Assembly: GCA_963718615.1 (NCBI GenBank)
Contig: OY970368.1
Location: 4,960,001-5,024,000, forward strand
Source of the DNA: an uncultured cyanobacterium
GTDB lineage: Bacteria; Cyanobacteriota; Cyanobacteriia; PCC-9006; JAAUQQ01
DNA: 64,000 nucleotides
Reading direction: 5' to 3'
Each line of letters begins with the position of its first letter. Position 1 is the stretch's first letter. The notes beneath the pieces were generated by a model. The model was not told where the DNA came from. It searched no databases and was given only the letters and a program-made list of their open reading frames with translations. Below are positions 39,142 to 64,000 of this stretch, in pieces. A program made the translations under genes and the position numbers.

Positions 39142-39144
39142 CTA

Positions 39145-39225
39145 GTGGTGTGAGGAGTGAAAGTTCGAGTGAAAAAACCTCTGGAGTCGAAACACGGCCA
39201 GACGCCCAGGGGTTTTTTCTTTTTT
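39145..39225 (+). ncRNA. yfr2: Probable Yfr2-family cyanobacterial sRNA
   Basis: 5' GGTGTGAGGAGTGA, then the hairpin AAAAAACCTCTGG..GTC-GAAACACGG..GAC..CCAGGGGTTTTTT with a U tail. Family assigned from recalled motifs. Confidence 0.65.
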
Positions 39226-48716: not shown

Positions 48717-51700
48717 ATGGCGATTCTGCACGGCAGTTGGACTGCGATTGGACAATTTTTGCTTTGGGGAGAAGCATGGCGAACCGTAGAGCCGGTCAGC
48801 TTGCCCGATCTGCGAGAGCCTGAGACTAAGGCGACGATTCCCAAGCAGCCCCTGGCCCTTTCCTTAAAAGACCTAGAGCCAGTCCTAGCGGAGTTATTGC
48901 CCCAGCTTGACCGTAAAACCTGGACTGCTGCCGATTGGGCGATCGCCCTCCCCACCCCCGCTGCCCCCACCAAAGGCCGAGGCCGCAAAAAAACCGAAGC
49001 CCCCCCCAGCGCCCTTTTACCCCAACATTCCGCCAGTGACTTAGAAGATCCGCTGCCGCCCCTCTATCCCTGGCGCGTGTCTGGCTATTGCCTCTCCCCG
49101 GCGGAGGCGATCGCCCTACTCGAATGCCTCCCCCTTGGCCTCCCCCAAACGGAAAACGCCTGGGTCGGCGGTGATCTACGGTTTTGGTCCCACATCGCCC
49201 GCTGGTCCATGGATCTGATGGCCCGCTCCAAATTTTTTCCTGGCCTCGACGCCTTACCCAGCGACCCCCAACACCCCAACACCCCAACACCCCAACACCC
49301 CAACACCCCCAGCCATCACAAAGATAAAGATAAAGACACAGACACAGACACAGACGAACCCGAGGCCCCCGAAGCCGAAGAAGACCTCGATACCCCTCCC
49401 CCTACCCGCTGGCTCACCCGCTGGCTGCCGCTGCTGGATAGCCGGATTGATCGCGATCGCTTCGTCCGTTTCACCCAGCAGATGCCCAGCAGTTGTCGGT
49501 GCTACTGGCCGGAGAGCGAAGGCTATGGTGTTCCCCTTTTAGGCAATTCCAGCGATTTGCTGCGGGATTTCTTGGGCCGGATGCTGGACGTGCAGATTAA
49601 ACCTGCGATTCATGGTGCATTGCCCAAAATTGAACCCGAGGTGCAATCCTGGCTCAAGGCCCTGGGCTCGGACCAAGCAGAATTGGATTCGGCAGTGGGC
49701 GATCGCCTCCAGGAGGTTCTCCAACGCTGGTCCTTACCGTTGCAGACTCAACTACAACAATATCGAACCTGCCTAACGCTCACACCACCAAGCTCAAAGC
49801 AGACCCCTTGGCATTTGAGCTATAGTCTTCAAGCGGAAGACCGGGCCGATTTCCAAGTGGATGCGGCGACGATTTGGCATCATCCGGTCGAACAGCTCAG
49901 CTACCAGGGACGGTTAATTCCCAATCCCCAGGAAACATTGCTAGAGGGACTGGGTCGAGCCCTGCGGTTGTACCCCAAACTAGAGCCCAGCCTTGAAGGT
50001 GCAGCCCCCACGGGGTGTGAGTTGACGCCGCCGGAAGCCTATGAGTTTATTAAGGCGATCGCCTGGAGGCTCCAGGACAATGGCCTGAGCGTGGTTTTGC
50101 CGGAAAGTTTAGCCAATCCGGAGGCGATCGCCAATCGACTGGGCCTAAAAATTAGCGCAGAATTGCCGAAGCGCACCACCTCTGGGGTTGGGCTGAATAG
50201 TTTGCTACGGTTCAAATGGGAACTTTCCATTGGAGGGCAGACCCTGACCAAGGCAGAATTCGAGCAGTTGGCGAAGCAAGAAATTCCCTTAGTTGAAATT
50301 AACGGCGAATGGGTCGAATTGCGCTCCAGCGACATCAAGGCCGCCCGCGAGTTCTTTGCCAGCCGTCAGGACCAGCCCAATCTTTCCCTCGAAGATGCCC
50401 TGCGGATCAGCACGGGGGATGCCCAAACTATCAGCAAACTGCCGGTGGTCAACTTTGAGTCTTCGGGGGCATTGCAGGAGCTGGTAACGACGCTGACGGG
50501 GAATCAGCCGGTGGAGGCGATCGCCGCCCCAGCCAGTTTCAAAGGCCAACTACGGCCCTACCAAGAACGCGGGGTTGGCTGGCTGTCGTTCCTACAACAG
50601 TGGGGACTGGGGGCCTGTTTGGCTGACGATATGGGCTTGGGCAAAACCGTGCAGATGATTGCATTGCTCCTGCATCTGAAAGAACAACAAACCCTGACTG
50701 CTCCGATTTTACTCATCTGCCCCACCTCCGTCCTTGGCAACTGGGAGCGGGAAGTTCATCGCTTTGGCCCGAGCCTCAAGGTCCGGGTCCATCACGGTCC
50801 CGATCGGCCCCAGGGTACTGCCTTAGCCAAATTGATGGAAAAAACCGATTTGCTAGTCACCAGCTATGCCCTCGTGCAGCGGGATTTGAAGTCGCTTAAA
50901 GCCATTGAATGGCTGGGGCTAGTTTTGGATGAAGCCCAGAATATCAAAAATGCCGACGCCAAGCAGTCGAAGGCCGTGCGCGAACTAGAAGCGGATTTTC
51001 GCATTGCGCTGACGGGGACACCGGTCGAAAACCGTCTGAGTGAGCTTTGGTCAATCATGGATTTTCTCAACCCTGGTTACCTGGGTCCGCAAAACTTTTT
51101 CCGACGACGGTTTGCCATGCCCATCGAGCGCTATGGGGATACGGATTCGCTGAAGACTTTGCGATCGCTCGTCCAACCCTTCATCCTCCGCCGTCTCAAA
51201 ACCGATCGTTCAATCATTCAAGATCTGCCTGAAAAGCAGGAAATGGCAGTGTTCTGTGGCCTAACCCAAGAGCAAGCTGACTTGTATCAACATCTCGTTG
51301 ATTCAACGCTCGAAACCATCGAATCTGCTACGGGGATTCAGCGACGGGGATTGATTTTGGCGTTGCTGACGAAGCTTAAGCAGGTGTGCAATCACCCTGC
51401 TTTGTTTGATGGTAAGCAAACTACAAAAAGCAGTTTTGCGGCGCGATCGGCGAAGGTGCAGCGGCTGGATGCGATGTTGGAGGAGGCGTTGGTGGAGGGC
51501 GATCGCGTCTTGATCTTCACTCAGTTTGCAGAATGGGGCAAGCTGTTGCAAAACCATCTGGAGCGTCAGTTTGGTGAGGTGTTGTTTTTGTATGGCAGTA
51601 CAACGAAGGCGAAACGGGAGGAAATGGTCGATCGCTTCCAGAAGGATCCTCAAGGTCCGCGTATTTTGCTGCTGTCGCTGAAGGCAGGGGGAGTTGGCTT

Positions 51701-51992
51701 GAACTTAACGCGGGCTAATCATGTGTTTCATTTCGATCGCTGGTGGAATCCGGCGGTGGAAAACCAGGCCACGGACCGAGCGTTTCGCATTGGCCAAACC
51801 CGTAATGTGCAGGTGCATAAGTTTGTCTGTAGCGGCACGTTGGAGGAGCGAATTCACGACATGATTGAAAGCAAAAAGGCACTGGCGGAGCAGGTGGTCG
51901 GAACGGGTGAGGATTGGCTGACGGAGATGGATACGGATGCGCTGCGGAATTTGCTTTTGCTCGATCGAAATAGCGTCATTGAGGATGCCTAA
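48717..51992 (+). CDS. SNF2-family helicase/ATPase (DUF3670 + SNF2_N + Helicase_C)
   Basis: MAILHGSW, LADDMGLGKT, DEAQ, LTGTPVEN, GGVGLNLT, QATDRAFRIGQ. Confidence 0.95.
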   Translation: MAILHGSWTAIGQFLLWGEAWRTVEPVSLPDLREPETKATIPKQPLALSLKDLEPVLAELLPQLDRKTWTAADWAIALPTPAAPTKGRGRKKTEAPPSALLPQHSASDLEDPLPPLYPWRVSGYCLSPAEAIALLECLPLGLPQTENAWVGGDLRFWSHIARWSMDLMARSKFFPGLDALPSDPQHPNTPTPQHPNTPSHHKDKDKDTDTDTDEPEAPEAEEDLDTPPPTRWLTRWLPLLDSRIDRDRFVRFTQQMPSSCRCYWPESEGYGVPLLGNSSDLLRDFLGRMLDVQIKPAIHGALPKIEPEVQSWLKALGSDQAELDSAVGDRLQEVLQRWSLPLQTQLQQYRTCLTLTPPSSKQTPWHLSYSLQAEDRADFQVDAATIWHHPVEQLSYQGRLIPNPQETLLEGLGRALRLYPKLEPSLEGAAPTGCELTPPEAYEFIKAIAWRLQDNGLSVVLPESLANPEAIANRLGLKISAELPKRTTSGVGLNSLLRFKWELSIGGQTLTKAEFEQLAKQEIPLVEINGEWVELRSSDIKAAREFFASRQDQPNLSLEDALRISTGDAQTISKLPVVNFESSGALQELVTTLTGNQPVEAIAAPASFKGQLRPYQERGVGWLSFLQQWGLGACLADDMGLGKTVQMIALLLHLKEQQTLTAPILLICPTSVLGNWEREVHRFGPSLKVRVHHGPDRPQGTALAKLMEKTDLLVTSYALVQRDLKSLKAIEWLGLVLDEAQNIKNADAKQSKAVRELEADFRIALTGTPVENRLSELWSIMDFLNPGYLGPQNFFRRRFAMPIERYGDTDSLKTLRSLVQPFILRRLKTDRSIIQDLPEKQEMAVFCGLTQEQADLYQHLVDSTLETIESATGIQRRGLILALLTKLKQVCNHPALFDGKQTTKSSFAARSAKVQRLDAMLEEALVEGDRVLIFTQFAEWGKLLQNHLERQFGEVLFLYGSTTKAKREEMVDRFQKDPQGPRILLLSLKAGGVGLNLTRANHVFHFDRWWNPAVENQATDRAFRIGQTRNVQVHKFVCSGTLEERIHDMIESKKALAEQVVGTGEDWLTEMDTDALRNLLLLDRNSVIEDA
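49266..49355 (+). repeat. (CCCCAACA)x5 followed by AAAGAT/ACAGAC hexamer repeats inside the SNF2 gene
   Basis: Directly visible; encodes PQHPNTPTPQHPNTP...KDKDKDTDTDTD. Confidence 0.85.
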
Positions 51993-52029: not shown

Positions 52030-52656
52030 TCATCCACCCGCCCTCAACACTTGTTCAGCCGTCAATTTCAGTCCTGAGAAGGTTGGAGAGACGATAGTTT
52101 GGTTGCCTCGAAATTGCTGAATTTCATACTCTCCACCCTCTAATGTACAAATAGAAAGCGTAGGTTGTTTGGGTTTTCCAATATGTCGAATTCCTCCCAA
52201 TCCTGCGTAGTCTGCAATCCAGTATTCGGGAATACCTAAAGCTGCATAGTCTTCGACTTTGCGAGCATAATCGTTTTGCCAGTTGCGACTCACGACTTCT
52301 GCAACCCATTTAATCGAACGACCCAGCGTCAAGATCGACTGATCAGACCAAAGCAGTTCTTGGGTCAGTTCATCTCGATTGATAACGGCGACGTCAGGAC
52401 GAAATGCTGTCATCGTGCTGTTAGAAGGGCGTAAGAGTCCTCGCTGAAGAACAAACCAAGGTAGGCCAGCACAGTCGATTTGTACACAGATCTTTGTGGT
52501 GATGAAGGCTACGACTTCTTCATGAAAACCGGTTGGTTCCAAGTCGAATACTTCTCCATCAATGAGTTCATAGCGGTTATTATCACCATAACGGGTGATA
52601 AACTCGTCGAAGCTGAGTGGCCTCTGTTGCAGGGGTTGGTCGATCGCAAGGGTCAT
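52030..52656 (-). CDS. Uma2-family (DUF820) endonuclease
   Basis: YELIDG, RPDVAV, VAEVVS, DY..K..DYA..GIPEYWI.D. Confidence 0.92.
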   Translation of the reverse strand: MTLAIDQPLQQRPLSFDEFITRYGDNNRYELIDGEVFDLEPTGFHEEVVAFITTKICVQIDCAGLPWFVLQRGLLRPSNSTMTAFRPDVAVINRDELTQELLWSDQSILTLGRSIKWVAEVVSRNWQNDYARKVEDYAALGIPEYWIADYAGLGGIRHIGKPKQPTLSICTLEGGEYEIQQFRGNQTIVSPTFSGLKLTAEQVLRAGG

Positions 52657-52780
52657 AGGTCAACTTAGCCCAATCGATACCTTCAGTTTAACAGAGAGTA
52701 GATGTGTGAGGTGGACCCAATCGACTGAACAGATTTAACAGGAGACTAAGCTCTGAATTCTCCCCGGATTGGACCTCTAT

Positions 52781-53644
52781 TCAGCGACTGCTCTCAGCTG
52801 CACCGTCAAAGTAAATCTCATCCGGTGTTTTGTAATCCAACGACTGATGCAATCTCAACTGATTATACCAGCTAAACCATTTCTTCACCTCCTGATTTAA
52901 GTGATTCCCATCCTCAAAACTCTTCAGATAAATCAGCTCGTACTTCAGCGATCGCCACAGCCTTTCAATGAAGATGTTGTCATGACACCTTCCCCGTCCA
53001 TCCATGCTCACCTGGGCTCCGGCTGTTCTCAACCTCTCGGTAAACACCTTCGCCGTGAACTGAGACCCCTGATCTGAATTGAAGATATCAGGACATCCAT
53101 ATTCCTCCAACGCTTCCTCCAATGCATCCAAACAGAACTGCACATCCATCGTGTTCGAGATTCGCCAGCTCAGCACCTTACGGCTGTACCAGTCCATAAT
53201 CGCCACCAGATAGAAATGCCCCTTCAGCACCGGCAGATAGGTGATGTCCGTGCTCCAGACCTGGTTTACCTTATCAATCGCCACACCCCTCAGCAGATAG
53301 GGATATATCTTGTGCTCCGGGTTTGCCACAGTCAGCTTCGGCTTCGGATACAGCGTTTGTAGACCCAGCTTTCGCATCAACCGCTGCACTCGCTTGCGAT
53401 TCACATCATGACCCTCTCTCTTCAACTGAGCCGTCATCCGACGAGAGCCATAGAACGGCATCTCCAGATACAGCTCATCCAAGCGACGCAGCAGTTCTAG
53501 CTCAGAGTCACTCACTGCTTTGGCACGGTAGTACAAGCTCGAACGGCTGATGCCCAGTAGCTGACATTGACGCACCAGGCTCAACTCCTCGTGCTCTCGC
53601 TCTACCAGGGCTTTTCGCTGCTCAACCCCAGTTTGGCTGAGCAC
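52781..53644 (-). CDS. IS3-family transposase OrfB (DDE); probably fused to OrfA by a -1 frameshift at the T6 run (53651-53656)
   Basis: YGSRRM, WSTDITY, FNSDQGSQF, IERLWRSLKYE. Confidence 0.92.
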   Translation of the reverse strand: MLSQTGVEQRKALVEREHEELSLVRQCQLLGISRSSLYYRAKAVSDSELELLRRLDELYLEMPFYGSRRMTAQLKREGHDVNRKRVQRLMRKLGLQTLYPKPKLTVANPEHKIYPYLLRGVAIDKVNQVWSTDITYLPVLKGHFYLVAIMDWYSRKVLSWRISNTMDVQFCLDALEEALEEYGCPDIFNSDQGSQFTAKVFTERLRTAGAQVSMDGRGRCHDNIFIERLWRSLKYELIYLKSFEDGNHLNQEVKKWFSWYNQLRLHQSLDYKTPDEIYFDGAAESSR

Positions 53645-53925
53645 TCCGCTAAAAAATCCCGTTCCACCTTCAGCTTGCCGATTTGCCGATACAGCTCGTT
53701 GATTTCTGCCTGTTTATTCGCTTCCTCCTTTCCTCTATCAGATGTCTGGCCTGAATCAAAGACGCTGCTTGCCCCTTCCAAGAGCTGCCTCTTCCACTGA
53801 TGGATCAGCGTTGGATGCACATTGTGTTGGCTCGCCAGTTCCGGCACCGTCTTTGCCCCTTGCAAGGCTTCCAAGGCGATTCTCGATTTGAACTGGGCGC
53901 TGTACTGTCGGCGTTTCTTGCTCAT
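53602..53925 (-). CDS. IS3-family transposase OrfA (HTH + leucine zipper)
   Basis: RRQYSAQFK..IAL, ELAS.H.VHP..I.QWK, LYRQIGKLKVERDFL. Confidence 0.9.
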   Translation of the reverse strand: MSKKRRQYSAQFKSRIALEALQGAKTVPELASQHNVHPTLIHQWKRQLLEGASSVFDSGQTSDRGKEEANKQAEINELYRQIGKLKVERDFLAECSAKLGLSSEKPW

Positions 53926-54240
53926 CTTCTACTCCTATCATTTTTCGTGGAGTTTCAGAGCTTAACCCCCTGTCCAGTTTTTGGGGTCCACTATAGTGGC
54001 AGGTTATGGGTTTCAAATCGTCAACGGCTATAAAGCTTAATTAATAAAGTGGGTGAGCCATATTTAAGCTCCGAGATAGATGATTTCTGTGTAGTCACAT
54101 CTCTTCGCTAAAATCCTTGCCTATGAGTCATCATTCACTTTTTTTCTGCAACCCAGCAGCTTTATCGTCCATTTTTTTACACGTGCAAACTGAAGCTTAC
54201 AATCAACAACCTTAAGGCACTCTCTAGCGAGAATTGAGCG

Positions 54241-54329
54241 ACATAACGTTGCCCATCACCCGCCGTAAATAACCTTCGAACTACAATAGATGACTTCTTT
54301 GCGGTCGGTGTGCATGGTCGTTGTTAGAC
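54241..54329 (-). other. attC: Integron attC-like recombination site (89 bp)
   Basis: Minus strand: R'' GTCTAAC, left arm CCATGCACACCGACCG, right arm CGGCGGGTGATGG, R' GTTATGT. The left arm carries extra unpaired bases. Lies 58 nt after the hsdM stop. Confidence 0.75.
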
Positions 54330-54387
54330 GGCTTGCAGATGAGGTCTCTCAAGCGGCGAGTTGATGGTTGGACGAGTAATCTGCAAT

Positions 54388-56013
54388 TCATGGCAATAGC
54401 GACAGTCCCAGCTCTTTCAGGAACTCATTGTGCTGTGCCGTTGCCGTTTGAATCGTGCCCTCGATTTCCATCAGCTCGGCATGAATTGCCGTCAAATCAA
54501 TCTCCTCTTCGGGGAGCGCAGTGCTGATATAGCGGGAAATGTTCAGGTTGAAGTCGTTTTTTTCAATCTCCTTCATCTCGACGCGGCGGGAGTAGCGCGG
54601 CTCTTCTTTGCGAAATTGGTAGGTTTCGATGATTTGGGTGATGTGTTCGGGCTTGAGCTGGTTTTGGCGTTTGCCTTTCTCGAACTGTTCGGCGGCGTTG
54701 ATGAAGAGCAGGTCGTCTGGCTTCTTGCAGCGTTTGAGCACGAGAATGCAGACGGGGATGCCGGTGGAGTAGAACAGGTTGGCGGGCAGGCCGATGATGG
54801 TGTCGATGTGGCCGTCTTTGAGCAGTTTGGTGCGGATGCGTTCTTCGGCACCGCCTCGGAAGAGTACGCCGTGGGGCAGGATGATGGCCATGACGCCTTC
54901 GTCTTTGAGGAAGTGGAAGCCGTGTAGGAGGAAGGCGAAGTCGGCGGCGGATTTGGGGGCGAGGCCGTGGTTTTTGAAGCGCACGTCGTCGCCCAGGGCT
55001 GGGGTGGGGGTCCAGCGGTAGCTGAAGGGTGGGTTGGCGACGATCGCATCGAAGGCGGGCTGCTTGGCGGGGTTGAGTTCGCGCAGAATCTCCCAGTCGT
55101 TGGTCAGAGTGTCGCCGTGGTAGATCTCGAACTCGCTGTCTTTGACGCCATGCAGCAGCATGTTCATGCGGGCGAGGTTGTAGGTGGTGATGTTTTTTTC
55201 TTGGCCGTAGATTTTGCCGATGGTGCCGCCTGCGTGCTTGAGGCGTTTGCGCACGTTGAGCAGCAGGGAGCCGGAGCCGCAGGCGAAGTCTAGTACGCTT
55301 TCGAGGCGTTGCTTTGATCCGGTTTTGGGTTCTTGGCTGTCGAGGGTGACGATCGCGGAGAGGATGTCGGAAATCTGTTGTGGGGTGTAGAATTCGCCTG
55401 CTTTTTTGCCGGAACCGGCGGCGAACTGGCCGATCAGGTATTCGTAGGCATTGCCCAGGGCATCAATGTCGGTGGAGAATTCGTTTAGTCCTTCGGCGAT
55501 TTTTTGGATGATGGTGCAGAGTTTGGCGTTGCGATCGGCGTAGGTTTTACCCAGTTTGTCTGAGGCGAGATTGATTTCGGAGAAGAGTCCCTGGAAGGTG
55601 CTTTCAAAGGATTCTTCTTCGATGTATTTGAATCCCGTCTGCAAGGTGTTGAGCAGTTCGTCGTTTTGGGTGCGGGCCAGGTTGGCGATGCTGTTCCAGA
55701 GGTGCGACGGCTGGATGACGTAGTGCGTTTTGCGGCGCATTTGTTTTTCAAATGCGGCGATGTCGTCTGGGTTATTGGCATACCAGAGGGCTAGCGGGAC
55801 TGGGTGGGTGTCGTCGTTGGGGTCGGGATAATCGCGTCCTAGTTCTTTTTTTGCGGCTGTCTCGTAGTTGTCGGAGAGGTAGCGGAGGAAAAGGAAGGAG
55901 AGCATGTAGTCGCGGAAGTCGTCCGCGTTCATGGCTCCGCGCAGTTGATCAGCGATGCCCCAGAGAATACTGCCCAGTTGTTTTTGCTTGGTGTCGTTCA
56001 TGGGGTTGCTCAT
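54388..56013 (-). CDS. hsdM: Type I restriction-modification methyltransferase subunit
   Basis: LWGIADQLRG, GEFYTP, LDFACGSGSLL, ANPPF, PHGVLFRG. Confidence 0.96.
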   Translation of the reverse strand: MSNPMNDTKQKQLGSILWGIADQLRGAMNADDFRDYMLSFLFLRYLSDNYETAAKKELGRDYPDPNDDTHPVPLALWYANNPDDIAAFEKQMRRKTHYVIQPSHLWNSIANLARTQNDELLNTLQTGFKYIEEESFESTFQGLFSEINLASDKLGKTYADRNAKLCTIIQKIAEGLNEFSTDIDALGNAYEYLIGQFAAGSGKKAGEFYTPQQISDILSAIVTLDSQEPKTGSKQRLESVLDFACGSGSLLLNVRKRLKHAGGTIGKIYGQEKNITTYNLARMNMLLHGVKDSEFEIYHGDTLTNDWEILRELNPAKQPAFDAIVANPPFSYRWTPTPALGDDVRFKNHGLAPKSAADFAFLLHGFHFLKDEGVMAIILPHGVLFRGGAEERIRTKLLKDGHIDTIIGLPANLFYSTGIPVCILVLKRCKKPDDLLFINAAEQFEKGKRQNQLKPEHITQIIETYQFRKEEPRYSRRVEMKEIEKNDFNLNISRYISTALPEEEIDLTAIHAELMEIEGTIQTATAQHNEFLKELGLSLLP

Positions 56014-57212
56014 GGGGTTGGGGCGGGTGCTGCGGAAGGCGATGCAGCGGGTGCAGGCGCGGGTGTGGCAGCTGGTGGATTTTCGACTATCTCCGGCAGG
56101 GCGAATTGGAATGTCGTTACAAAGTCTGTAAGTAGGCGTCGGAACAGGTCTTTGTTGTCGTCGCCCATTTCGGTGGGTTCGTGGATGGCGTATTTGCCGT
56201 GGCTCAGGAGGTTGAGCGCGCGGTTGTAGAGCGCTCGATCGTCCTCATTATTTAGGGATTTGAGGCAAAAAGAGATGTCTGGGTGGCCAAAAAAGGCGGC
56301 GGTTTTTTCCATGATGCTCCGCAGGGCGTTGAAATGGAATGTGTAGAGCGTGCCGCTGGTGGCGGCCAGTTGCAGTTCGGCAAGGCTGGCGACGTGATGA
56401 AAGAACGGTGTGTCGTCGGTGGCGCGTAGAGTATAGGCACCGTCGCCATTCGGACGGTGGAGGAAGTAGCGTTTGTGAGTGACCTTTGGCTCCCCTGCTT
56501 TGGGTCTGCCAATCTCGTTGCACATCACGTTGAAGAAAAGGGCGTGGTGTGAGGAGAAGACGATTTTGATGGGTGCGGGATCGCCATTTGGGTCTTGGCG
56601 GCTGGCGGCGCGGCGCAGCAGTTGGGCGAGGTCGCAGGCGACAGCGATCGCGTTGTTGTCATCGAGGGAGGAGATGGGGTCGTCGATGTAGAGGAATTTG
56701 TTCGATTGGTAGGAGATGTGGCCGTCGAGCATGCGCTCGCAGATGGCCATGAAGAGGCACCAGATGAAGATGTTCTGCTCGCCACGGGAGATTTTGATGT
56801 TTTCTGCTTCTCCTTTGCGGAAGGAGACTTTCCATTCGGTGTAGTCGATGTCGAAGTCAAAATCTGCGTAGCGATCGAGGTAACCCGCGATTGTCTCGTC
56901 GAGGGCGAGGTCTTTCAGGCCGTTGAAGAAGGTGGAGTCGGGATTGAGCTGGAGATGGCGGGCAGCGTCTCCATCGAGATCGTTTTCCCAGGTGAACAGG
57001 TCTTCGGTGAAAGCGTTGAAGTAGAGGGTGTCGGCGGTGCCGTTGTTTCGGCGTTTGCCTGCGTCTTTGAACTCCATGGAGAGGCGCGTTTTGCCTGTGC
57101 GGTTGTAGGCGTAGAGGAGGATGAGCTGCGTCGGCTTTGTAGGATTGTTCAAGTCGTCGCGCAGGCGGGTGACTAAGGTGCGCAAGCTCTGATAGGTGCG
57201 AATGTTGCTCAT
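56010..57212 (-). CDS. prrC: PrrC-family anticodon nuclease (ABC ATPase + HEPN RNase)
   Basis: YAYNRTGKTRLS, YFNAFTEDLF, KISRGE, IDDPISSLD, SHH, LRSIMEKTA, RALNLLSH; about 400 aa; inside an hsd operon. Confidence 0.85.
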   Translation of the reverse strand: MSNIRTYQSLRTLVTRLRDDLNNPTKPTQLILLYAYNRTGKTRLSMEFKDAGKRRNNGTADTLYFNAFTEDLFTWENDLDGDAARHLQLNPDSTFFNGLKDLALDETIAGYLDRYADFDFDIDYTEWKVSFRKGEAENIKISRGEQNIFIWCLFMAICERMLDGHISYQSNKFLYIDDPISSLDDNNAIAVACDLAQLLRRAASRQDPNGDPAPIKIVFSSHHALFFNVMCNEIGRPKAGEPKVTHKRYFLHRPNGDGAYTLRATDDTPFFHHVASLAELQLAATSGTLYTFHFNALRSIMEKTAAFFGHPDISFCLKSLNNEDDRALYNRALNLLSHGKYAIHEPTEMGDDNKDLFRRLLTDFVTTFQFALPEIVENPPAATPAPAPAASPSAAPAPTP

Positions 57213-58603
57213 GCTTTAACCTCCTCTGGGGATGGGAAAAGCTGCTGCATCAGGCCGCGCTTGTGGGTTTTGAGGGCTTCGAGCTTTTGGGTGGCGGCGG
57301 CGATCAGGTCGTCTAGGGTGGTGAGGCAGGTGGCGATGCGTTGTTGTTCGATGACATCTTTTGGCAACTGCACCCTCAACTTCGCTTGCTCAGTAATCCC
57401 AATGTAGGCTCTGGTTCCTCCTCCCGATACTTCCAGAAGGTTTGACTGAAAAGTCTCGGAGACGAATAGCTGAGCCAGGAACTCACTCGAAAGCTTCTTC
57501 GGGTTTTTCACGCGGTAATAAGTTACTTGGGGAGTCAGCATCAGATAGGGCGTATTGATTTTCCTCACGACGGCCACTTCGCCAACGGTTCCTTTGTGCG
57601 AAAGAAGGACGTCACCTTCCCTTGCGAATCCTTTTTGCAATGTGTCAGCTAGCTCTCTGCTAATGAAATGGCAATGGTCGATGTCGATCAGCCCTCCATT
57701 AAGGTCACTCGCCATAATGAACGGAATCCCTTTGGGGACGTAATCCGACGACTTTGGATGAATATTTCCATGATTTCCATCTTTCGGCGGGAACAAGCAG
57801 TTTGCTTCGACTAGTCCCCCGACGGAACTGAGAACCCACTCCCCCTTCCCACGAAACTCTGGAAACCGCAGGCGGGGTTGGGTTTCGCCTTCGCGGGGGA
57901 AAAGCTGCTGCATCAGCCCTTTTTTATGGGTCTTGAGCGCGTCCAGTTTGCGGGCTTGGGCGGCGATCGCCTCATCCACCGAACTCAGGCACTCCGCGAT
58001 TTTTTGTTGTTCGGGGAAGATTGCTGGAAGGGGAATGATGAACGACCTGATTTGCTCAAAATTTAGCCCTTGCCGATTGCCGCCAGCTTGAAAACTGTCA
58101 ATCTGTTTCTGCCCATCGTGGGAAATGAGATATTGATTCAGGAAATAGGGGCTCAGTTCGTCAGGTTTGGCGCGAATAATGCAAACGTGCTGATTGACAT
58201 TGCCTCCCTCAATTTTTAAATTAGCCACCGCGCTTCTTCCAATTGAAGCGCCAGTAATATTGAGAAGAACATCAAAAGCTTCGATTTGAGTTGATCGAAA
58301 TGAGTTGTGCGTTTCTTCGTCGATGAAGGCCACATCGTCCAAAAGCAATTCTCCCCAACCAATATTCTGACTGCGAACGAAAGGGCGACCCGAAGATTTG
58401 TAATTCTTTTCGCCGCCTGTTGGAGTGATTCCGCTTCCAACCTTTATGGTTTTTGAACCAAGCTTTTCCCCTGCCCACCCCTCCGCTTCCCGAAACTCCG
58501 GAAACCGCAGGCGGGGAATCAAGCATTGAGAATTTTGAACAGAGAAAGACTCATCCTGCCTCCCTTTCTCACTGCTCACTTCCAACTTCTCCCTTTTTTT
58601 CAT
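57209..58603 (-). CDS. hsdS: Type I restriction-modification specificity subunit
   Basis: Two TRDs; duplicated PRLRFPEF and EQQ.IA..L..LD..I...KGLMQQLFP regions. Confidence 0.95.
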   Translation of the reverse strand: MKKREKLEVSSEKGRQDESFSVQNSQCLIPRLRFPEFREAEGWAGEKLGSKTIKVGSGITPTGGEKNYKSSGRPFVRSQNIGWGELLLDDVAFIDEETHNSFRSTQIEAFDVLLNITGASIGRSAVANLKIEGGNVNQHVCIIRAKPDELSPYFLNQYLISHDGQKQIDSFQAGGNRQGLNFEQIRSFIIPLPAIFPEQQKIAECLSSVDEAIAAQARKLDALKTHKKGLMQQLFPREGETQPRLRFPEFRGKGEWVLSSVGGLVEANCLFPPKDGNHGNIHPKSSDYVPKGIPFIMASDLNGGLIDIDHCHFISRELADTLQKGFAREGDVLLSHKGTVGEVAVVRKINTPYLMLTPQVTYYRVKNPKKLSSEFLAQLFVSETFQSNLLEVSGGGTRAYIGITEQAKLRVQLPKDVIEQQRIATCLTTLDDLIAAATQKLEALKTHKRGLMQQLFPSPEEVKA

Positions 58604-59694
58604 GGTTCCCCCTCCGTTTCGTCAGCAAAGTCACCGGACAATTCAGCCTCAATTTCCTCAATGGTAGGGAGGACAGTTTGGAGGCGATCGGGAAGGGACT
58701 GCACCAGTTGGTATTCAGCCACACCGATCGGTTTGTTGCTATTCCGGAGTGCATACTCCGCTACCACAGAATTTTTACTTTTGCACAAGAGGATGCCGAT
58801 CGTCGGCTGATCGTCGGGATGTTTCACCTGGGCATCCACCGCACTGAGGTAAAAGCCTAGTTGTCCCGTGTGCTCTGGCTTGAAGGAGCCAGCCTTAAGC
58901 TCGACCACGACATAGCAGCGCAGCTTGAGGTGATAAAAGAGGAGATCCATGAAAAACTCGTCACCGCCAACATCCAGCAGCACTTGTCGTCCGACGAAGG
59001 CAAATCCCGCCCCCAGTTCCAGCAAAAACTGAGTAACATGCTTGATTAGAGCGTTTTCGATTTCCCGTTCGTTGGCCTCCTTTCCCAGCACGAGGAAATC
59101 GAAGCGATACGGATCTTTCAGGGATTCACGGGCTAGATCAGACTGGGGAGTGGGCAAAGTCCGACTAAAATTGGTGACGGCTGCACCGCTACGATCGCGC
59201 AGGCGGGACTCGATGTGCATAACGAGAACGTTCCGCGACCAGCCATGCTCCACGGACTGTGCCGCATACCACAGCCGCTCCTGAGGCGTTTTGAGCTTAT
59301 CCAGCAAAGCGATGTGGTGATACCACGGCAATTGTGCAAGACCCACTTGCACAATTTGGCCCGTTGCGATTTGGTCAGTAACCTGCTGACCCATCATTTG
59401 CCCATCTGGCCAAGCCCTGGCAAAGGCACGCATATATTTGAGATTGCGAGGAGAAAAGCCCTTCATTTCAGGGAACGCCGTGCGGAGATCGTGGGAGAGC
59501 CGATCGATCACCTTCGCGCCCCAGCCCTGTGCTGCCTGCCGATCGAGGATATCCTTACCGATTTCCCAGTAAAGCATCACGAGTTCGTGATTTACTGCCA
59601 TCGTGGCCCGCTGCTGCGCTGCATGGATACGCAGTTTCAAGTCAGCGAGCCATGCTTGGTAATCGGGGGGAATGATGTCGGATTTACGATTCAT
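58600..59694 (-). CDS. YhcG/DUF1016-family PDDEXK nuclease-like protein
   Basis: YWEIG, WGAKVID.LS.DL, FS.RNL.YMR.F, LKDPY.FDFL, DLLFYH..L.CYVVVELK. Confidence 0.92.
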   Translation of the reverse strand: MNRKSDIIPPDYQAWLADLKLRIHAAQQRATMAVNHELVMLYWEIGKDILDRQAAQGWGAKVIDRLSHDLRTAFPEMKGFSPRNLKYMRAFARAWPDGQMMGQQVTDQIATGQIVQVGLAQLPWYHHIALLDKLKTPQERLWYAAQSVEHGWSRNVLVMHIESRLRDRSGAAVTNFSRTLPTPQSDLARESLKDPYRFDFLVLGKEANEREIENALIKHVTQFLLELGAGFAFVGRQVLLDVGGDEFFMDLLFYHLKLRCYVVVELKAGSFKPEHTGQLGFYLSAVDAQVKHPDDQPTIGILLCKSKNSVVAEYALRNSNKPIGVAEYQLVQSLPDRLQTVLPTIEEIEAELSGDFADETEGEP

Positions 59695-62600
59695 ATGCGC
59701 TGAGTCCTGAAATATCGCGGCCAGCGGCCCGTTTAGTCAGCAGCGGCACCAAGTCATCCATCAGCGCCAGCTCAGCCTGAGTGCGTGCCTTCCAGCCCAG
59801 ATCCAGCGGAGCCATCAAGTCGCCAAGCTGCTCGCCATCAAAAATCATCCGCTCCAAAATGCCATCCACAAAAGCTTGCAGCGCCGCCGCAGCAAGGCCG
59901 TGCTTACCCGCGATCGCCGCCAACTCCCGCCCATCCTTCTCCGCCTTAAAACGGGCATAGCCCTCACGGATCGCCGTTTCGCTCAACCCCTCCCCCGCCT
60001 TCAGCGTGGCAATGTAAGCCGCAATATCCTCCCGCTCATCCATAAACTTAGCATCGGCACCGATCAAGCCGATCAGCGCCTCCCGGCTCATCTTCGCCTT
60101 GCCCGAACCTGGAGCCGAGAACTTAGCAATCAGCCCCATGATGTAGTCGTAATCAATCACCGCCGAGGCAAACAGCACAAACTCAAAATCGAGCTGATCC
60201 ACATTGTCTGGCACCGGCTGATCGGCACCCTTGCCCTTACCCTGCTGCGCCTTGAGCCGCTGAGCCGTCTCCAAATACGCCCCCTTAAAGCCCCGATGCC
60301 GCTCCTCTGGCAGCACCTGCTCGATCGCGGCTTTATTGTCCTCGGTGAGGTCGGTGTATTGGTCAAGCTGCGTCTTCAGCCGCTGAACTTCCTTGTATTG
60401 GGCGCAGAAAGCAGCGCGGGCCGCATCACCCTTCAGGTTCGGCACAGCCTCCGGTGCGGTGGTCAGCCCCTGGGATTTCATAAAGCTGTCGAGCTGCTGC
60501 ACAGCCTCCTCCAGTTTTTGGATGACGATGGGAGCCTTATCCACTAGCCAAATTTCCCGCGCCTGCTCACTGGTCTTTTCCCCAGAGAAGAGGGCGATCG
60601 CCGCATCCACAGCCTCCTGCTGCTGGCGAAAGTCGAGGATATTGCCGTAGGGCTTGGTGCCATTGAGCACGCGATTCGTGCGGGAAAACGCCTGGATCAA
60701 ACCGTGGTACTTGAGATTCTTATCCACATAGAGCGTATTCAGGTACTTGGAATCAAAACCCGTGAGCAGCATATCCACCACGATCGTGATGTCGATCTTC
60801 TGCGCCGCAGGGAAGTCGGCATTGGGCCACTGCTGATCCTTGATGCGCTTCTGCACATCCTGATAGTAAAGGTCAAACTCGCTGAGCTTGTGATTGCTAC
60901 CGTAGCGGCTGTTGTAGTCCGCCAGGATGGCCTTGAGCGCGGCTTTTTTACCCTCAGGGTCTTCTTCGTTATCGGCCTTCTCCTGGGGCAGATCTTCCTG
61001 GATCTGGCGCACGTCCTGGTTACCCTCGGCGGGCGGCGAAAACACACAGGCGATATTCAGCGGCCTGAACTCGGTGCCGTCGGCCTGCTTCTCGGCCTGC
61101 TTCTCGGCCTGCATCGTCTTAAACAGGCCGTAGTACTCGATCGCGTCATTAATCGAGGCAGTGGCCAGGATGGCATTGAACCGACGGCCAGCGGTGGCCG
61201 CATCGTGCTTGGCGAGAATGGCCTCGATCACGGCGCGCTTGGCGATCGCTTCACCGGGCTTCGGCAGCTTCTTGCCCTTTTCTTCCTTGGGCTTGAAGTA
61301 GTCCACATGGAAGCGGAGCACGTTCCCGTCTTCGATCGCGTGGGTGATGGTGTAAGCATGGAGCGGCTTCTGGAAGAGATCTTCCGTGGTGCGCATCGAT
61401 GCCTGGGTGCCCTCGATCTGTTTCAGGGTGGCATTGGCCTCAAAGATCGGCGTACCCGTGAACCCAAAGAGCTGAGCCTTGGGAAAAAATGCTTTGATGG
61501 CCTTGTGATTCTCGCCGAACTGCGATCGGTGGCATTCATCAAAGATCAAGACAATGCGTTTGTCCTTCAGCGCCTCAAGCTGATCCTTATAGGTGGCTTG
61601 GCCGCTTTTGCGGCGCTGCTTGTTACGCTTGCTGTTTTCATCCAGCGCCAGGCCCAGCTTCTGGATGGTGGTGACGATCACCTTGTCCGCATAGTCCTCC
61701 GAGAGCAGTCGGCGCACGAGGGCGGCGGTGTTGGTGTTTTCCTCCACGCAGCCCGCTTGGAACTTGTTAAATTCCTCGCGGGTCTGGCGATCGAGATCCT
61801 TTCGATCCACCACGAACAGGCATTTGTGGATATGGTCATTGAGCTTGAGCAGGGTAGAGGCTTTGAAGGACGTCAGCGTCTTACCGCTGCCGGTGGTGTG
61901 CCAGATATAGCCGTTCCCCGCATCGTCCTCAATACACTGCACGATCCGCTGCACAGCATAGACCTGGTAGGGCCGCATGATCATCAGCTTTTGCTCGCTC
62001 TGGATCAGGACCATGTAGCGGCTGAGGGTCTTGCCCAGGGCGCACTTTTGCAAGAAGCGATCGGCGAAGTCGTTCAGGTGGGTGATCTTCTGGTTCGCCT
62101 CGTCCGCGAACTCATAGATGGGCAGGAACCGCTCCTCGGCATTGAAGGCGAAGTGGCGGGTGTTGTTGTTGGCAAAGTAATAGGTGCGATCGCGATTGCT
62201 GACAATAAAAAGCTGGAGAAAACAAAGCAGGGTCTTGGTGTAACCGTTGCCCGCGTCGTTTTTATATTCGACAATCTGCTCCATCGCCCGACGAGGGCTG
62301 ATGCCGAGGGTCTTCAGCTCGATCTGCACAGCGGGCACACCATTGATCAAAATCAGCACATCGTAGCGGTGGTGGCTGTTGTCGGTATTGATGCGCAGTT
62401 GGTTAACGACCTCAAAGGTGTTTTTGCACCAGTCTTTGAGGTTTACTAGGGTGTAGTTGAGTGGGGTGCCATCGTCACGGGTGAAGGCATTGATTTCGCG
62501 CAGGGTCTTAGCAGCGGTGAAAACGTCTGGGCTGACGATTTCGTCGAGCAGGCGGGCAAACTCGGAATCAGTGAGACGGCAACGGTTGAGCGCCTCGAAT

Positions 62601-62767
62601 TTCTCGCGGAAGTTCTTTTCTAGGGAGGCGCGATCGGTGATGTCTTGGCGGTATTCGTATTTGAGTTTTTGGAGCGTGCCGATAAAGCCGTATTCGATGT
62701 CGTCCTCTCGGAGAACCGAGGGCGCGGCCTGGTGTGACGGGTAGTTGATCTCAGAGTCAGTGGGCAT
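59684..62767 (-). CDS. hsdR: Type I restriction endonuclease subunit R
   Basis: D....NG.P...IELK, HTTGSGKT, DECH, FTGTP, MLLTGFD, QAFSRTNR. Start placed at ATG 62767 (MPTDSE). Confidence 0.95.
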   Translation of the reverse strand: MPTDSEINYPSHQAAPSVLREDDIEYGFIGTLQKLKYEYRQDITDRASLEKNFREKFEALNRCRLTDSEFARLLDEIVSPDVFTAAKTLREINAFTRDDGTPLNYTLVNLKDWCKNTFEVVNQLRINTDNSHHRYDVLILINGVPAVQIELKTLGISPRRAMEQIVEYKNDAGNGYTKTLLCFLQLFIVSNRDRTYYFANNNTRHFAFNAEERFLPIYEFADEANQKITHLNDFADRFLQKCALGKTLSRYMVLIQSEQKLMIMRPYQVYAVQRIVQCIEDDAGNGYIWHTTGSGKTLTSFKASTLLKLNDHIHKCLFVVDRKDLDRQTREEFNKFQAGCVEENTNTAALVRRLLSEDYADKVIVTTIQKLGLALDENSKRNKQRRKSGQATYKDQLEALKDKRIVLIFDECHRSQFGENHKAIKAFFPKAQLFGFTGTPIFEANATLKQIEGTQASMRTTEDLFQKPLHAYTITHAIEDGNVLRFHVDYFKPKEEKGKKLPKPGEAIAKRAVIEAILAKHDAATAGRRFNAILATASINDAIEYYGLFKTMQAEKQAEKQADGTEFRPLNIACVFSPPAEGNQDVRQIQEDLPQEKADNEEDPEGKKAALKAILADYNSRYGSNHKLSEFDLYYQDVQKRIKDQQWPNADFPAAQKIDITIVVDMLLTGFDSKYLNTLYVDKNLKYHGLIQAFSRTNRVLNGTKPYGNILDFRQQQEAVDAAIALFSGEKTSEQAREIWLVDKAPIVIQKLEEAVQQLDSFMKSQGLTTAPEAVPNLKGDAARAAFCAQYKEVQRLKTQLDQYTDLTEDNKAAIEQVLPEERHRGFKGAYLETAQRLKAQQGKGKGADQPVPDNVDQLDFEFVLFASAVIDYDYIMGLIAKFSAPGSGKAKMSREALIGLIGADAKFMDEREDIAAYIATLKAGEGLSETAIREGYARFKAEKDGRELAAIAGKHGLAAAALQAFVDGILERMIFDGEQLGDLMAPLDLGWKARTQAELALMDDLVPLLTKRAAGRDISGLSAYES

Positions 62768-62772
62768 AGTGG

Positions 62773-62885
62773 TCAGTTGCGAAAAAGAGCCTTGAACGGG
62801 ATGCGGAATTGAGCGATCGCATCCCACAGTCGCTTTTCGAGCGAAGCGGTGTCGGCATTGTTTTCGGTGGGGGCGTCCAGTCCAT
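62773..62885 (-). pseudogene. Frameshifted 5' remnant of a second hsdM gene
   Basis: MDWT then, in the shifted frame, APTENNADTASLEKRLWDAIAQFR, resembling the HsdM N-terminal LEKRLWDAADQFR. Confidence 0.6.
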
Positions 62886-62913
62886 TAGTTCTCAGCTCGT
62901 TCTCTGTATATCG

Positions 62914-63000
62914 GTCTAACGGTTGCGGTCAGCGGTTGCCGATACTTTTGCATCCTACCCAAGCAGCTTTGGTCAATCCGCTGCACCGCAATTGTTATAC
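62914..63000 (-). other. attC: Integron attC-like recombination site (87 bp)
   Basis: Minus strand: R'' GTATAAC, left arm TTGCGGTGCAGCGGATTGACC, right arm GGCAACCGCTGACCGCAA, R' GTTAGAC. Extra bases on the left arm. Lies 24 nt after the upstream gene stop. Confidence 0.78.
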
Positions 63001-63024
63001 AGCGTATCTATTTGGTTCGTTATG

Positions 63025-64000
63025 CTACCTTTTTCTTTTAGATTGTTGAAAGAGTAAGCCAACTGGGGATGCTTTCATCGTTTTTGCCTCTTTTTGAATC
63101 TCCTGAAACTTATTAGGTAATTCCTTCAATTTAGGTACATCAAGCAATTGATCAGCAGCAAATGCTAATAGACCAAAGGTTGGTGCACCGCTAAGAGCCG
63201 CTGCAACCTCAATAGTTCCAATTGCAATCCAACTTCCCACATCAACACCCGCAAACTTCCAAGTTTTATTACGAAGCTTTGTCATATTTTGCTGGTGTTG
63301 CTCAAAAGCACCACGAATGTTATCAACCACCTGATCAGTAGTCTGAAAGAAATTGGTTGGCTCAGATGCTGCAATATCAGATACTCCTCTGCCCAAAATT
63401 TCTCGGAGTTCTTCAGTAGCACCCTGTTGTCTCATTTCAACTAAAGCTTCTGGTGGGATATTGCCAAGCCATTGCATCTCACCTCTAGCAGCAGACTGAA
63501 GCCCTCGCACAACGTGTAGAGGAGTTAAGTCAGTGTTTGATACACGATCTGCATCGTATTCAAGTTTCCAATTAAGATATCTCCAAGATGTTTCAGCATC
63601 TATGAGTGGGGTTCCCCTAAGTTCTAGGCTCCGCCTCAATAAATCGTTGGCTTGCGACATTCGACCAATGAAATTTGGAAGAATAATATCACCCGCACGT
63701 TGTGGATTAAAGACTCTACCTTCTCCTCGCATATACTCGCGAATTTGTTCATCTAGAGTTTGTGTAGCTTCGGTATCAAAAAGAAGAAGATCAGGATTGG
63801 CAAGTGCAGCAACAAGATCACTAGGTTGCTCAAACTGTTTTGCATAATCTTGTAGCTCGTCAATTGACTCAAAGTTTCTTCCAAACATTGTAGAAACGTG
63901 CTTCAAACAATCACCCTCTGCCATAGAGTGAATAAACTCTGAATAACCTTCCTCTAAATCAAGCTTGTCAGGAACGATCGCAATGATTGGTGTATCAACT
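63025..64000 (-). CDS. Hypothetical protein, probable cassette gene; 5' end outside the window
   Basis: The frame stays open to the window end (VDTPIIAIVPDKLDLEEGYSEFIHSM...). AT-rich, and followed directly by an attC-like site. Confidence 0.75.
   Translation of the reverse strand, partial: VDTPIIAIVPDKLDLEEGYSEFIHSMAEGDCLKHVSTMFGRNFESIDELQDYAKQFEQPSDLVAALANPDLLLFDTEATQTLDEQIREYMRGEGRVFNPQRAGDIILPNFIGRMSQANDLLRRSLELRGTPLIDAETSWRYLNWKLEYDADRVSNTDLTPLHVVRGLQSAARGEMQWLGNIPPEALVEMRQQGATEELREILGRGVSDIAASEPTNFFQTTDQVVDNIRGAFEQHQQNMTKLRNKTWKFAGVDVGSWIAIGTIEVAAALSGAPTFGLLAFAADQLLDVPKLKELPNKFQEIQKEAKTMKASPVGLLFQQSKRKR

Follow-up and report, generated by a model that had tools for sequence, protein, structure and literature searches.

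Can an entire five-gene restriction-modification operon be a single gene cassette of an integron? This question is raised by a locus on the minus strand of a 64,000-nucleotide stretch of an uncultured cyanobacterial genome (assembly GCA_963718615.1, contig OY970368.1, positions 4,960,001 to 5,024,000; hereafter, the window), in which the genes of a type I restriction-modification (RM) system, together with yhcG and a prrC-like gene, lie between two co-oriented attC-like hairpins. The initial annotation of the window had proposed that this operon represents one giant integron cassette, and our analysis bears out this proposal, with good though incomplete confidence, at the level of both structure and evolutionary history. 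In the following, the genome that holds the window is referred to as G000, its relatives as G003, G004, G013 and G039, and extracted loci by L numbers. Unless marked as genome positions, box and gene coordinates are window positions and are read on the minus strand.

Boundaries and recombination sites

The unit in question and its two recombination sites are arranged as follows.

62919..54247, minus strand: RM cassette, 8,673 bp; starts with TTAGAC (62919), includes all five genes and ends on the G of GTTATGT (54247)
62914..63002, minus strand: opening attC, which marks the end of the upstream cassette and the start of the RM cassette; R'' GTATAAC at 63002-62996, R' GTTAGAC at 62920-62914
54241..54329, minus strand: closing attC, the RM cassette's own, with 89 nt inside the 57-141 nt range of attC sites; R'' GTCTAAC at 54329-54323, R' GTTATGT at 54247-54241

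The crossover point at the opening attC is located between G62920 and T62919, and bases 54246-54241 of the closing attC are a property of whatever comes next. The R' half-site TTAGAC at the start of the cassette exactly complements the R'' box GTCTAAC at its end. This cross-match of the opening R' with the closing R'' box had been noted from the outset, and it was recovered upon reading the minus strand, as were the box positions and sequences (GTTAGAC and GTCTAAC, with the own-site pairs GTATAAC/GTTAGAC and GTCTAAC/GTTATGT). Of the limits first given for the opening attC, the start at 62914 is correct, whereas the end lies at 63002 rather than at 63000. The gene order along the cassette is hsdR-yhcG-hsdS-prrC-hsdM, with the coding strand corresponding to the attC top strand; hsdR begins 92 bp past the cassette start, and the closing attC begins 58 bp past the last stop codon. 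Five genes and 8,673 bp do not match the usual form of a cassette (one short gene, often promoterless, under ~2 kb), a trait that is typical but not defining. In G000, the unit contains no insertion sequence (IS), and its length is wholly that of the operon. A promoter and terminator scan of positions 54150-63100 was uninformative, with three promoter-like sites compared to 4.0 expected and none of them in the cassette leader.

An alternative explanation holds that the hairpins belong to another cyanobacterial repeat family or are chance matches, and that the operon is an ordinary defence island. It draws on the lack of an integrase gene nearby and of any attC-like family in the window in an Rfam search at gathering thresholds (Rfam itself may hold no attC model), as well as on the predicted fold of the closing site. 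As single-stranded DNA, the opening site folds with -20.6 kcal/mol (z -3.57), with none of 200 shuffles performing as well, and its unpaired bases lie on the R''-side arm. By contrast, the closing site reaches only -10.6 kcal/mol when folded alone (z +0.59), and 151 of 200 shuffles fold as well. Since folding alone thus supports the opening site only, covariation within the repeat family was used instead. The closing site belongs to a family that is spread across the chromosome, as detected with blastn and nhmmer (15 matches at E<0.01). When these sequences were aligned with the opening site (16 sequences in total), they showed a single architecture, composed of an RYYYAAC-type box, a three-part stem, a variable loop, the return stem and a GTTRRRY box, with unpaired bases confined to the 5' arm of the stem. 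RNAalifold predicted 15 pairs for this alignment, 10 of which show compensatory changes. In a 22-pair attC structure that includes the R''/R' pairs, 86.3% of the cells are paired, compared to 32-44% with the partners slid; 13 of the 22 pairs change on both sides, a number equalled by none of 500 shuffles.

Covariance-model support, which the initial annotation had set as a check, was obtained for both sites with a model that excluded them. This model (R2) was derived from 22 attC sites of G000, none of them from the window, and was applied with filters off to both strands of 100 kb, comprising the window, 20 kb beyond it (L023) and the relevant contig of G003 (L043). The closing attC scored 83.4 bits (E 1e-21), the opening attC 77.5 bits (E 5e-20) and the attC of G003 77 bits, with the next best matches in the 100 kb reaching only 11.3 and 10.1 bits. 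R2 gave no match in 1.54 Mb of unrelated loci, and it has matches in at least 36 of 41 genomes of the class. Inside the operon, R2 detected no attC, and the best internal match obtained with another model, R1, reached 9.4 bits (E 4.4), in agreement with the earlier observation that no attC lies between the two hairpins.

The wider collection of sites also includes an attC subclass with CCCCAT replacing the AAC of R'' (L025:14936-15045 and 15958-16066; L026:9913-10023 and 2682-2790; L030:8568-8680; L134:307-415; G003 L043:10023-10132). Except for the one in G003, these sites have a conserved ~50-nt extension on their 5' side, and in L134 an IS110-family transposase gene directly adjoins the CCCCAT-type site. 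These sites suggest that an IS of the IS1111 kind targets attC, or that one has left its footprint there.

The local array and the integrons of the genome

On the minus strand, the local array comprises an attI-like multi-repeat module, a first cassette (cassette 1), the RM cassette and an IS3 element. Within this small chromosomal integron remnant, which has no integrase gene, the RM unit occupies the second cassette position.

genome 5026960-5024838, minus strand: attI-like module, multi-repeat, split by an IS4-like element with a DDE_Tnp_1_4 transposase
genome 5024836..5022920, minus strand: cassette 1 (upstream), 1,917 bp, with one 552-aa open reading frame (ORF) that has no Pfam family
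63025..64000, minus strand: 3' part of the cassette 1 ORF, which continues to genome 5024683
52698..54002, minus strand: IS3-family element (orfA 53602-53925, orfB 52781-53644; Pfam HTH_Tnp_1, rve), 244 bp downstream of the cassette end

Among the matches listed, the IS3-family element has at least seven other copies in G000 at 100% identity. At the other end of the array, the attI-like unit resumes after the IS and ends with '...GTCTAATCAGATT G/TTATAC' (the slash marks the crossover point), with the G located 837 bases beyond the window, at genome 5024837. Cassette 1 in turn ends with the R'' box GTATAAC, the exact complement of the GTTATAC at its start. The initial annotation had implied that the upstream cassette should open with TTATAC, and this sequence is indeed present there. 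The cross-match between R' and R'' is seen in both of the two local cassettes, as expected of former circles with one attC. By hand count, GTCTAAC is the R'' box of two and GTATAAC of one of the 22 other sites. A cross-match is also found between sites 1 and 2 of L025 (AGCTAAC and GTTAGCT).

Palindromic units (TTAGGCnGAA...TTCnGnCTAA) make up a 300-nt module that is present at five or six sites of the chromosome, and the copy at genome 5026947-5026721 lies upstream of both attC sites on the same strand. The region between the intact intI gene of G000 and its first cassette consists of repeated palindromic units, a 5-base spacer and then GTTRRRY. Two copies of it (L031 and L025) share 96% identity, with divergence setting in directly after 'TTAAGA G/TTA'. 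It is this common build, together with the divergence points of the two copies, that leads us to read the local module as attI-like.

The intact intI gene, for which the initial annotation had asked that the genome be searched, is located at genome 948635-949606. It encodes 323 aa, scores 443.8 bits with TIGR02249 (cut-off 265) and carries the HxxR and IYTHV motifs; judged by these features, the integrase looks functional. Fragments of intI were detected at four other places (TIGR02249; tblastn). Beside two of them lie co-oriented members of the attC family, in the divergent orientation that is expected of integrons.

L025: attC sites at 3622, 11850, 14936 and 15958
L026: attC sites at 15270, 9913 and 2682

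Similarly, G013 has an attC at C5:622623-622731 beside an intact intI at C5:624441-625379. The cargo of attC-bounded units in G000, which includes AbiTii, an Arr rifampin ADP-ribosyltransferase, a Schlafen/AlbA_2 protein and a STAND NTPase, is typical for cassettes. That the hairpins could be something other than attC sites is therefore already disfavoured and, in our estimation, highly improbable, given the attC architecture with its 13 covarying pairs, the co-oriented arrays beside intI genes or remnants in G000 and other genomes, the typical cargo of the bounded units (AbiTii, Arr, Schlafen/AlbA_2) and the divergence of attI and cassette copies exactly at G/TT.

The RM cassette is the longest attC interval seen in G000. 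Other long intervals have the following contents.

8.2-kb interval, L025: two IS copies within a STAND/TPR gene
5.4-kb interval, L026: IS21 element
7.2-kb interval, L026: genes on both strands
5.2-kb interval, behind module A at 2.25 Mb: NACHT NTPase and IS110-family gene

The attI-like modules of G000 fall into three sequence families, with two copies of the intact-intI type, about 11 of a second type and five to six of 'module A' (examples are L026:16240-16640, L028:1498-1790 and 3049-3340, and genome 5026721-5026947). Most of them are followed by one to three attC-ended cassettes, mostly without an integrase remnant, and no such remnant was detected by tblastn (E 10) beside the modules at genome 2250414, 4665498, 4667049 and 5026721. 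With these dispersed modules and their cassettes, the chromosome holds about twenty mini-integrons. In one cassette of an integron remnant (L025:15108-15851), the encoded protein is a fusion of a TPR domain with a rifampin ADP-ribosyltransferase domain of the Arr type (Pfam Arr-ms, 157.6 bits).

Related copies and the origin of the unit

Copies of the operon in relatives were sought among the matches listed for 40 of them. G003, a member of the same family but of another genus, carries the unit on contig C200 at 91-95% identity, with a length of 9,862 bp. The blastn matches to the window (62920..59683, 94.9%; 57329..55977, 91.1%; 56001..54244, 91.4%; nothing beyond) end within 1-3 bases of both G/TT crossover points. 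Base by base, the identity of G000 and G003 at the 5' end extends through '...G/TTAGACCGATATAC', with unrelated sequence further upstream. At the 3' end, the common sequence includes the attC as far as '...GGGCAACG/TTA', beyond which the two genomes are no longer related. In G003, the cassette is joined directly to an attI-like unit ('GTTAGGCAGAATCAATTCCGTCTAATAGATA G/TTAGAC'), with no attC upstream. The upstream partner is thus an attC in G000 and an attI-like unit in G003, and because only the 7-base box is common to the two, homologous recombination cannot explain the junction. The terminal attI-like unit upstream of the G003 cassette is 92.5% identical to two copies in G000, and the contig ends 249 bases further. 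The downstream genes map to genome 3.30 Mb in G000. Considering that the unit is 91-95% identical, whereas core genes of the two genomes are 67-78% identical (among the matches listed), and that the chromosomal context differs, the unit was recently shared between lineages. Within the G003 cassette, hsdS is in two frames, an IS200-family gene precedes hsdM, and two other ORFs replace yhcG.

These findings could be accommodated by a model in which an integron integrase inserted a circle, bearing one attC (R'' GTCTAAC, R' GTTAGAC), into an attI-like site. The resulting arrangement next to attI would still be seen in G003, and cassette 1 would later have been inserted ahead of the RM cassette in G000 or, alternatively, been excised from G003. 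The position of the unit behind an attC in one genome and behind an attI-like site in the other represents the comparative evidence that would point to handling by an integrase. We infer that the unit was integrated as a circle and may be mobile to this day; its excision by the intact IntI of the genome is plausible.

Several points weigh against this interpretation. One of them is provided by G004, whose hsdR and hsdM are 93-94% identical to those of G000, although the operon lacks attC there and is bounded differently. With filters off, model R1 detected no attC on either of the two G004 operon contigs. The homologous segment extends from 62903, which leaves out the first 16 bases of the cassette, to the stop codon of hsdM (54388), and the operon lies between miaE/aroQ and a GNAT gene accompanied by hflX. 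The orthologous site in G000 is empty, with the miaE/aroQ and GNAT/hflX flanks adjacent to each other. An 11-bp direct repeat brackets the G004 insertion (L045:3098-3113, L044:2445-2690), and hsdR is in two frames. This copy implies that the operon also exists and moves outside integrons, by other means. The cassette may have been formed from a version lacking attC, or the attC-less version may derive from a cassette whose ends were lost; both directions are conceivable. The initial annotation had taken boundaries in relatives other than the G/TT points to speak against a cassette: those of G004 do differ, whereas the homology with G003 (window 62920..54244) ends at these points. It is also conceivable that the cassette could have arisen by placement of an RM segment inside a small cassette, or that recombination of adjacent units gave rise to the boundaries in G000 and G003, the 8.7-kb segment itself not having moved as a circle again after its first integration. 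In addition, the weakly folding closing attC may recombine poorly, and its G003 copy reads GTCT-CCCCAT-AAC instead of GTCTAAC. Of four other consecutive pairs with canonical boxes, two (L027, L030) do not show the cross-match. The attI-like module of the local array is interrupted by an IS, and neither an intI gene nor a remnant of one was found within 20 kb upstream. Furthermore, according to the available text of one study, the excision frequency of long cassettes drops when the flanking attC folds poorly (Loot et al., 2017; PMC5371416), and a preprint, as far as its accessible text goes, reports that a 4-kb IS-bearing cassette was not recovered in a capture assay and calls cassette size a biological limit (bioRxiv 10.64898/2026.03.17.712381, 2026).

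The empty site of G000 (genome 3689440-3689495) contains three tandem 14-nt repeats ending in GTTAAC/GTTAGC. Two distant homologues of the operon were considered as cassettes and rejected, one in G013 (C4), where the attC matches next to the operon occur on the opposite strand only, and one in G039 (C3), where there are no attC matches. Of the public sequencing runs, none matches more than 0.20 of the sampled words, and no RNA run was among the matches; four runs, all of them metagenome contigs, were compared in detail. Neither the joint expected of a circle (...GGGCAACG/TTAGACCG...) nor that of a precise deletion (62914-63002 joined to TTATGTCGC) was seen in these four runs. The contigs of one run (X2) show G004-type junctions, and loose ends at 54244 and 62916 in the public runs are probably attC sites of other cassettes.

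Based on the copies without attC, one may argue that the cassette is accidental, with the two attC sites and short stubs beside them (5', 16-17 bp; 3', 141 bp) stemming from a small cassette, into which the operon was placed by illegitimate or homologous recombination, so that the whole was never moved by an integrase. The exact boundaries in G003 would then be due to movement of adjacent units, or to the array having been inherited as a whole, vertically or horizontally. Consistent with this idea, the RM segments of G004 and run X2 lack the stubs, having their boundaries just inside the cassette ends (62903/62881 and 54388/54407), and an IS200-family gene just upstream of hsdM is common to G003 and G004, linking cassette and non-cassette copies. 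Moreover, excision falls with cassette length, as stated in the available part of Loot et al. (PMC5371416). However, the TTAGAC at the 5' end and the GTCTAAC of the attC are exact complements, as expected if they came from one circle attC, and in G003 the unit is located directly at an attI-like site. attI is the preferred entry point for incoming circles. The chromosomal flanks also differ between G000 and G003, implying that at least the attI-plus-cassette unit has moved, and, irrespective of how it arose, the unit as it stands is a structurally complete cassette. Thus, we regard an accidental origin as unlikely. Instead, as far as sequence comparison can tell, the segment 62919..54247 is probably a genuine integron gene cassette, containing a complete five-gene defence operon that includes PrrC and a YhcG-type PDDEXK nuclease.

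Gene content and relation to known systems

The gene identities initially assigned from the translations (hsdR, yhcG, hsdS, prrC, hsdM) agree with the Pfam and PADLOC matches.

59684..62827, minus strand: hsdR, type I restriction subunit, 1047 aa; Pfam HSDR_N, ResIII/SWI2_SNF2, T1R_D3-like, EcoR124_C; PADLOC REase_I 1114 bits
58600..59694, minus strand: yhcG, DUF1016 N-terminal domain and PDDEXK nuclease, 364 aa; Pfam YhcG_C 215 and DUF1016_N 142 bits; PADLOC candidate family PDC-S02 541 bits
57209..58603, minus strand: hsdS, specificity subunit, 464 aa; Pfam Methylase_S in two stretches; PADLOC Specificity_I 324 bits
56010..57212, minus strand: prrC-like anticodon nuclease gene, 400 aa; PADLOC PrrC PDLC02360 436.7 bits over 18-350 of 372; Pfam AAA_13
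54388..56013, minus strand: hsdM, type I methyltransferase, 541 aa; Pfam N6_Mtase 346 bits, HsdM_N; PADLOC MTase_I 504.5 bits

All five frames are open, and adjacent genes overlap or abut. The type I RM set is complete, with intact frames and full-length family matches for HsdR, HsdM and HsdS, and the predicted PrrC protein, which likewise gives a full-length family match, is encoded inside the hsd operon, between hsdS and hsdM. Where PrrC accompanies a type I RM system, the methylase modifies host DNA, HsdR cleaves DNA that lacks this mark, and PrrC is kept silent by the RM complex until a phage inhibits restriction, whereupon it cleaves tRNA-Lys. We infer a defence activity of the present operon, which would work in the same manner. 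The region between hsdR and hsdS varies, with yhcG (PDC-S02; 58600-59694) in G000 and two unrelated ORFs in G003, one of which (L043:3717-4687) matches PDC-S13 with 286 bits. This slot appears to be exchangeable within an otherwise conserved operon, as far as these two copies suggest. HsdR homologues with 77-87% amino-acid identity are found in Nitrospira, Verrucomicrobiota, Betaproteobacteria and others (80 loci, L054-L133), a range that points to a wide horizontal spread of this type I RM lineage. Model R2 yielded no attC match at these 80 loci with close HsdR homologues from other phyla, and hence no further cassette copies.

On the far side of the IS3 element lies a Uma2-family endonuclease gene (52030-52656, minus strand), which is convergent with a large SNF2/DUF3670 helicase gene (48717-51992, plus strand); an attC closing a third unit past the IS3 element and the Uma2 region was not found. 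The window further contains a Cyano-1 RNA (39144-39224, plus strand; 46 bits, gathering score 41).

Previous work has put the size of integron cassettes far below that of the present unit. In the available text of Cury et al. (2016), which also notes integrons in Cyanobacteria, the largest known cassettes measure ~2 kb, and the 4-kb clustering distance that IntegronFinder applies to attC sites was set at twice this value (PMC4889954). Loot et al. (2017) examined cassettes of up to ~3 kb and, in the part of the paper at hand, judged the limit not to be stringent (PMC5371416). As for defence genes, Kieffer et al., in the text available, describe defence cassettes in mobile integrons, with homologues outside integrons lacking attC (bioRxiv 10.1101/2024.07.02.601719), and a 2025 review, whose accessible portion reports on Darracq, Littner et al., calls the defence systems of integrons streamlined, with systems of more than two genes being absent (PMC12409362). 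Our literature search, which left subscription papers and supplementary tables outside its scope, retrieved no type I RM system and no IS-free cassette of more than 4 kb described as an integron cassette.

It is tempting to speculate, with a confidence that falls a little short of an even chance, that integrases handle cassettes of 9-10 kb in nature, that multi-gene defence operons circulate as cassettes among cyanobacteria, that the reported absence of systems with more than two genes is partly an artefact of 4-kb attC clustering, and that the G004 (no attC, flanked by core genes), G000 and G003 copies, at 91-95% identity, capture the birth or loss of a cassette at single-base resolution. Cassette size has been treated as a biological limit of integrons, and an 8.7-kb five-gene cassette with base-exact ends in two genera argues that this limit is not absolute and suggests that large cassettes are being missed. 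The RM cassette also offers a natural substrate for measuring the length dependence of IntI recombination, and together with the near-identical non-cassette copy of G004, it forms a rare matched pair for the question of how cassettes form. If our reading is true, a layered module of RM and abortive infection could be moved and reordered by an integron.

Among known systems, the E. coli prr locus, which comprises the EcoprrI type Ic RM system and the PrrC anticodon nuclease, resembles the present operon in that PrrC is encoded within a set of type I hsd genes. It differs in the order hsdR-yhcG-hsdS-prrC-hsdM, the extra YhcG/PDC-S02 nuclease gene and the integron cassette location found here. 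A slot for a second defence gene within an hsd operon is also provided by the VPI-2 type I RM system of Vibrio cholerae, which harbours TgvAB according to the available text of the 2025 review, although the embedded genes are different and the locus is part of a pathogenicity island rather than bounded by attC sites (PMC12409362). An attC-to-attC distance far above the norm is shared with IS-enlarged cassettes such as the 4-kb Sucellos cassette in the V. cholerae integron, as described in the accessible part of the 2026 preprint (bioRxiv 10.64898/2026.03.17.712381), and other long intervals of G000 (8.2 kb in L025, 5.4 kb in L026) are indeed IS-enlarged. In contrast, the RM cassette of G000 has no IS, whereas its G003 copy does have an IS200-family gene. 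In build, the unit resembles the cassettes of sedentary chromosomal integrons and of clusters of attC sites lacking integron-integrases (CALIN). Common to them are a single 3' attC, in which R''/L''/L'/R' boxes occur and the R'' arm carries the unpaired bases, a 5' boundary at the G/TT of the site before, genes encoded on the attC top strand and an array headed by an attI-like site. Anti-phage cargo, too, is known from mobile and chromosomal integrons, as the available texts report (bioRxiv 10.1101/2024.07.02.601719; PMC12409362). Unlike in these systems, the local array is without an integrase gene, the unit has five genes, whereas defence systems of more than two genes are reported absent in the portion of the review cited above (PMC12409362), and its 8,673 bp are about four times the ~2 kb of the largest cassettes cited in 2016 in the text available (PMC4889954). 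The RM unit is thus a clear outlier in size and gene number, yet it is built like a cassette.

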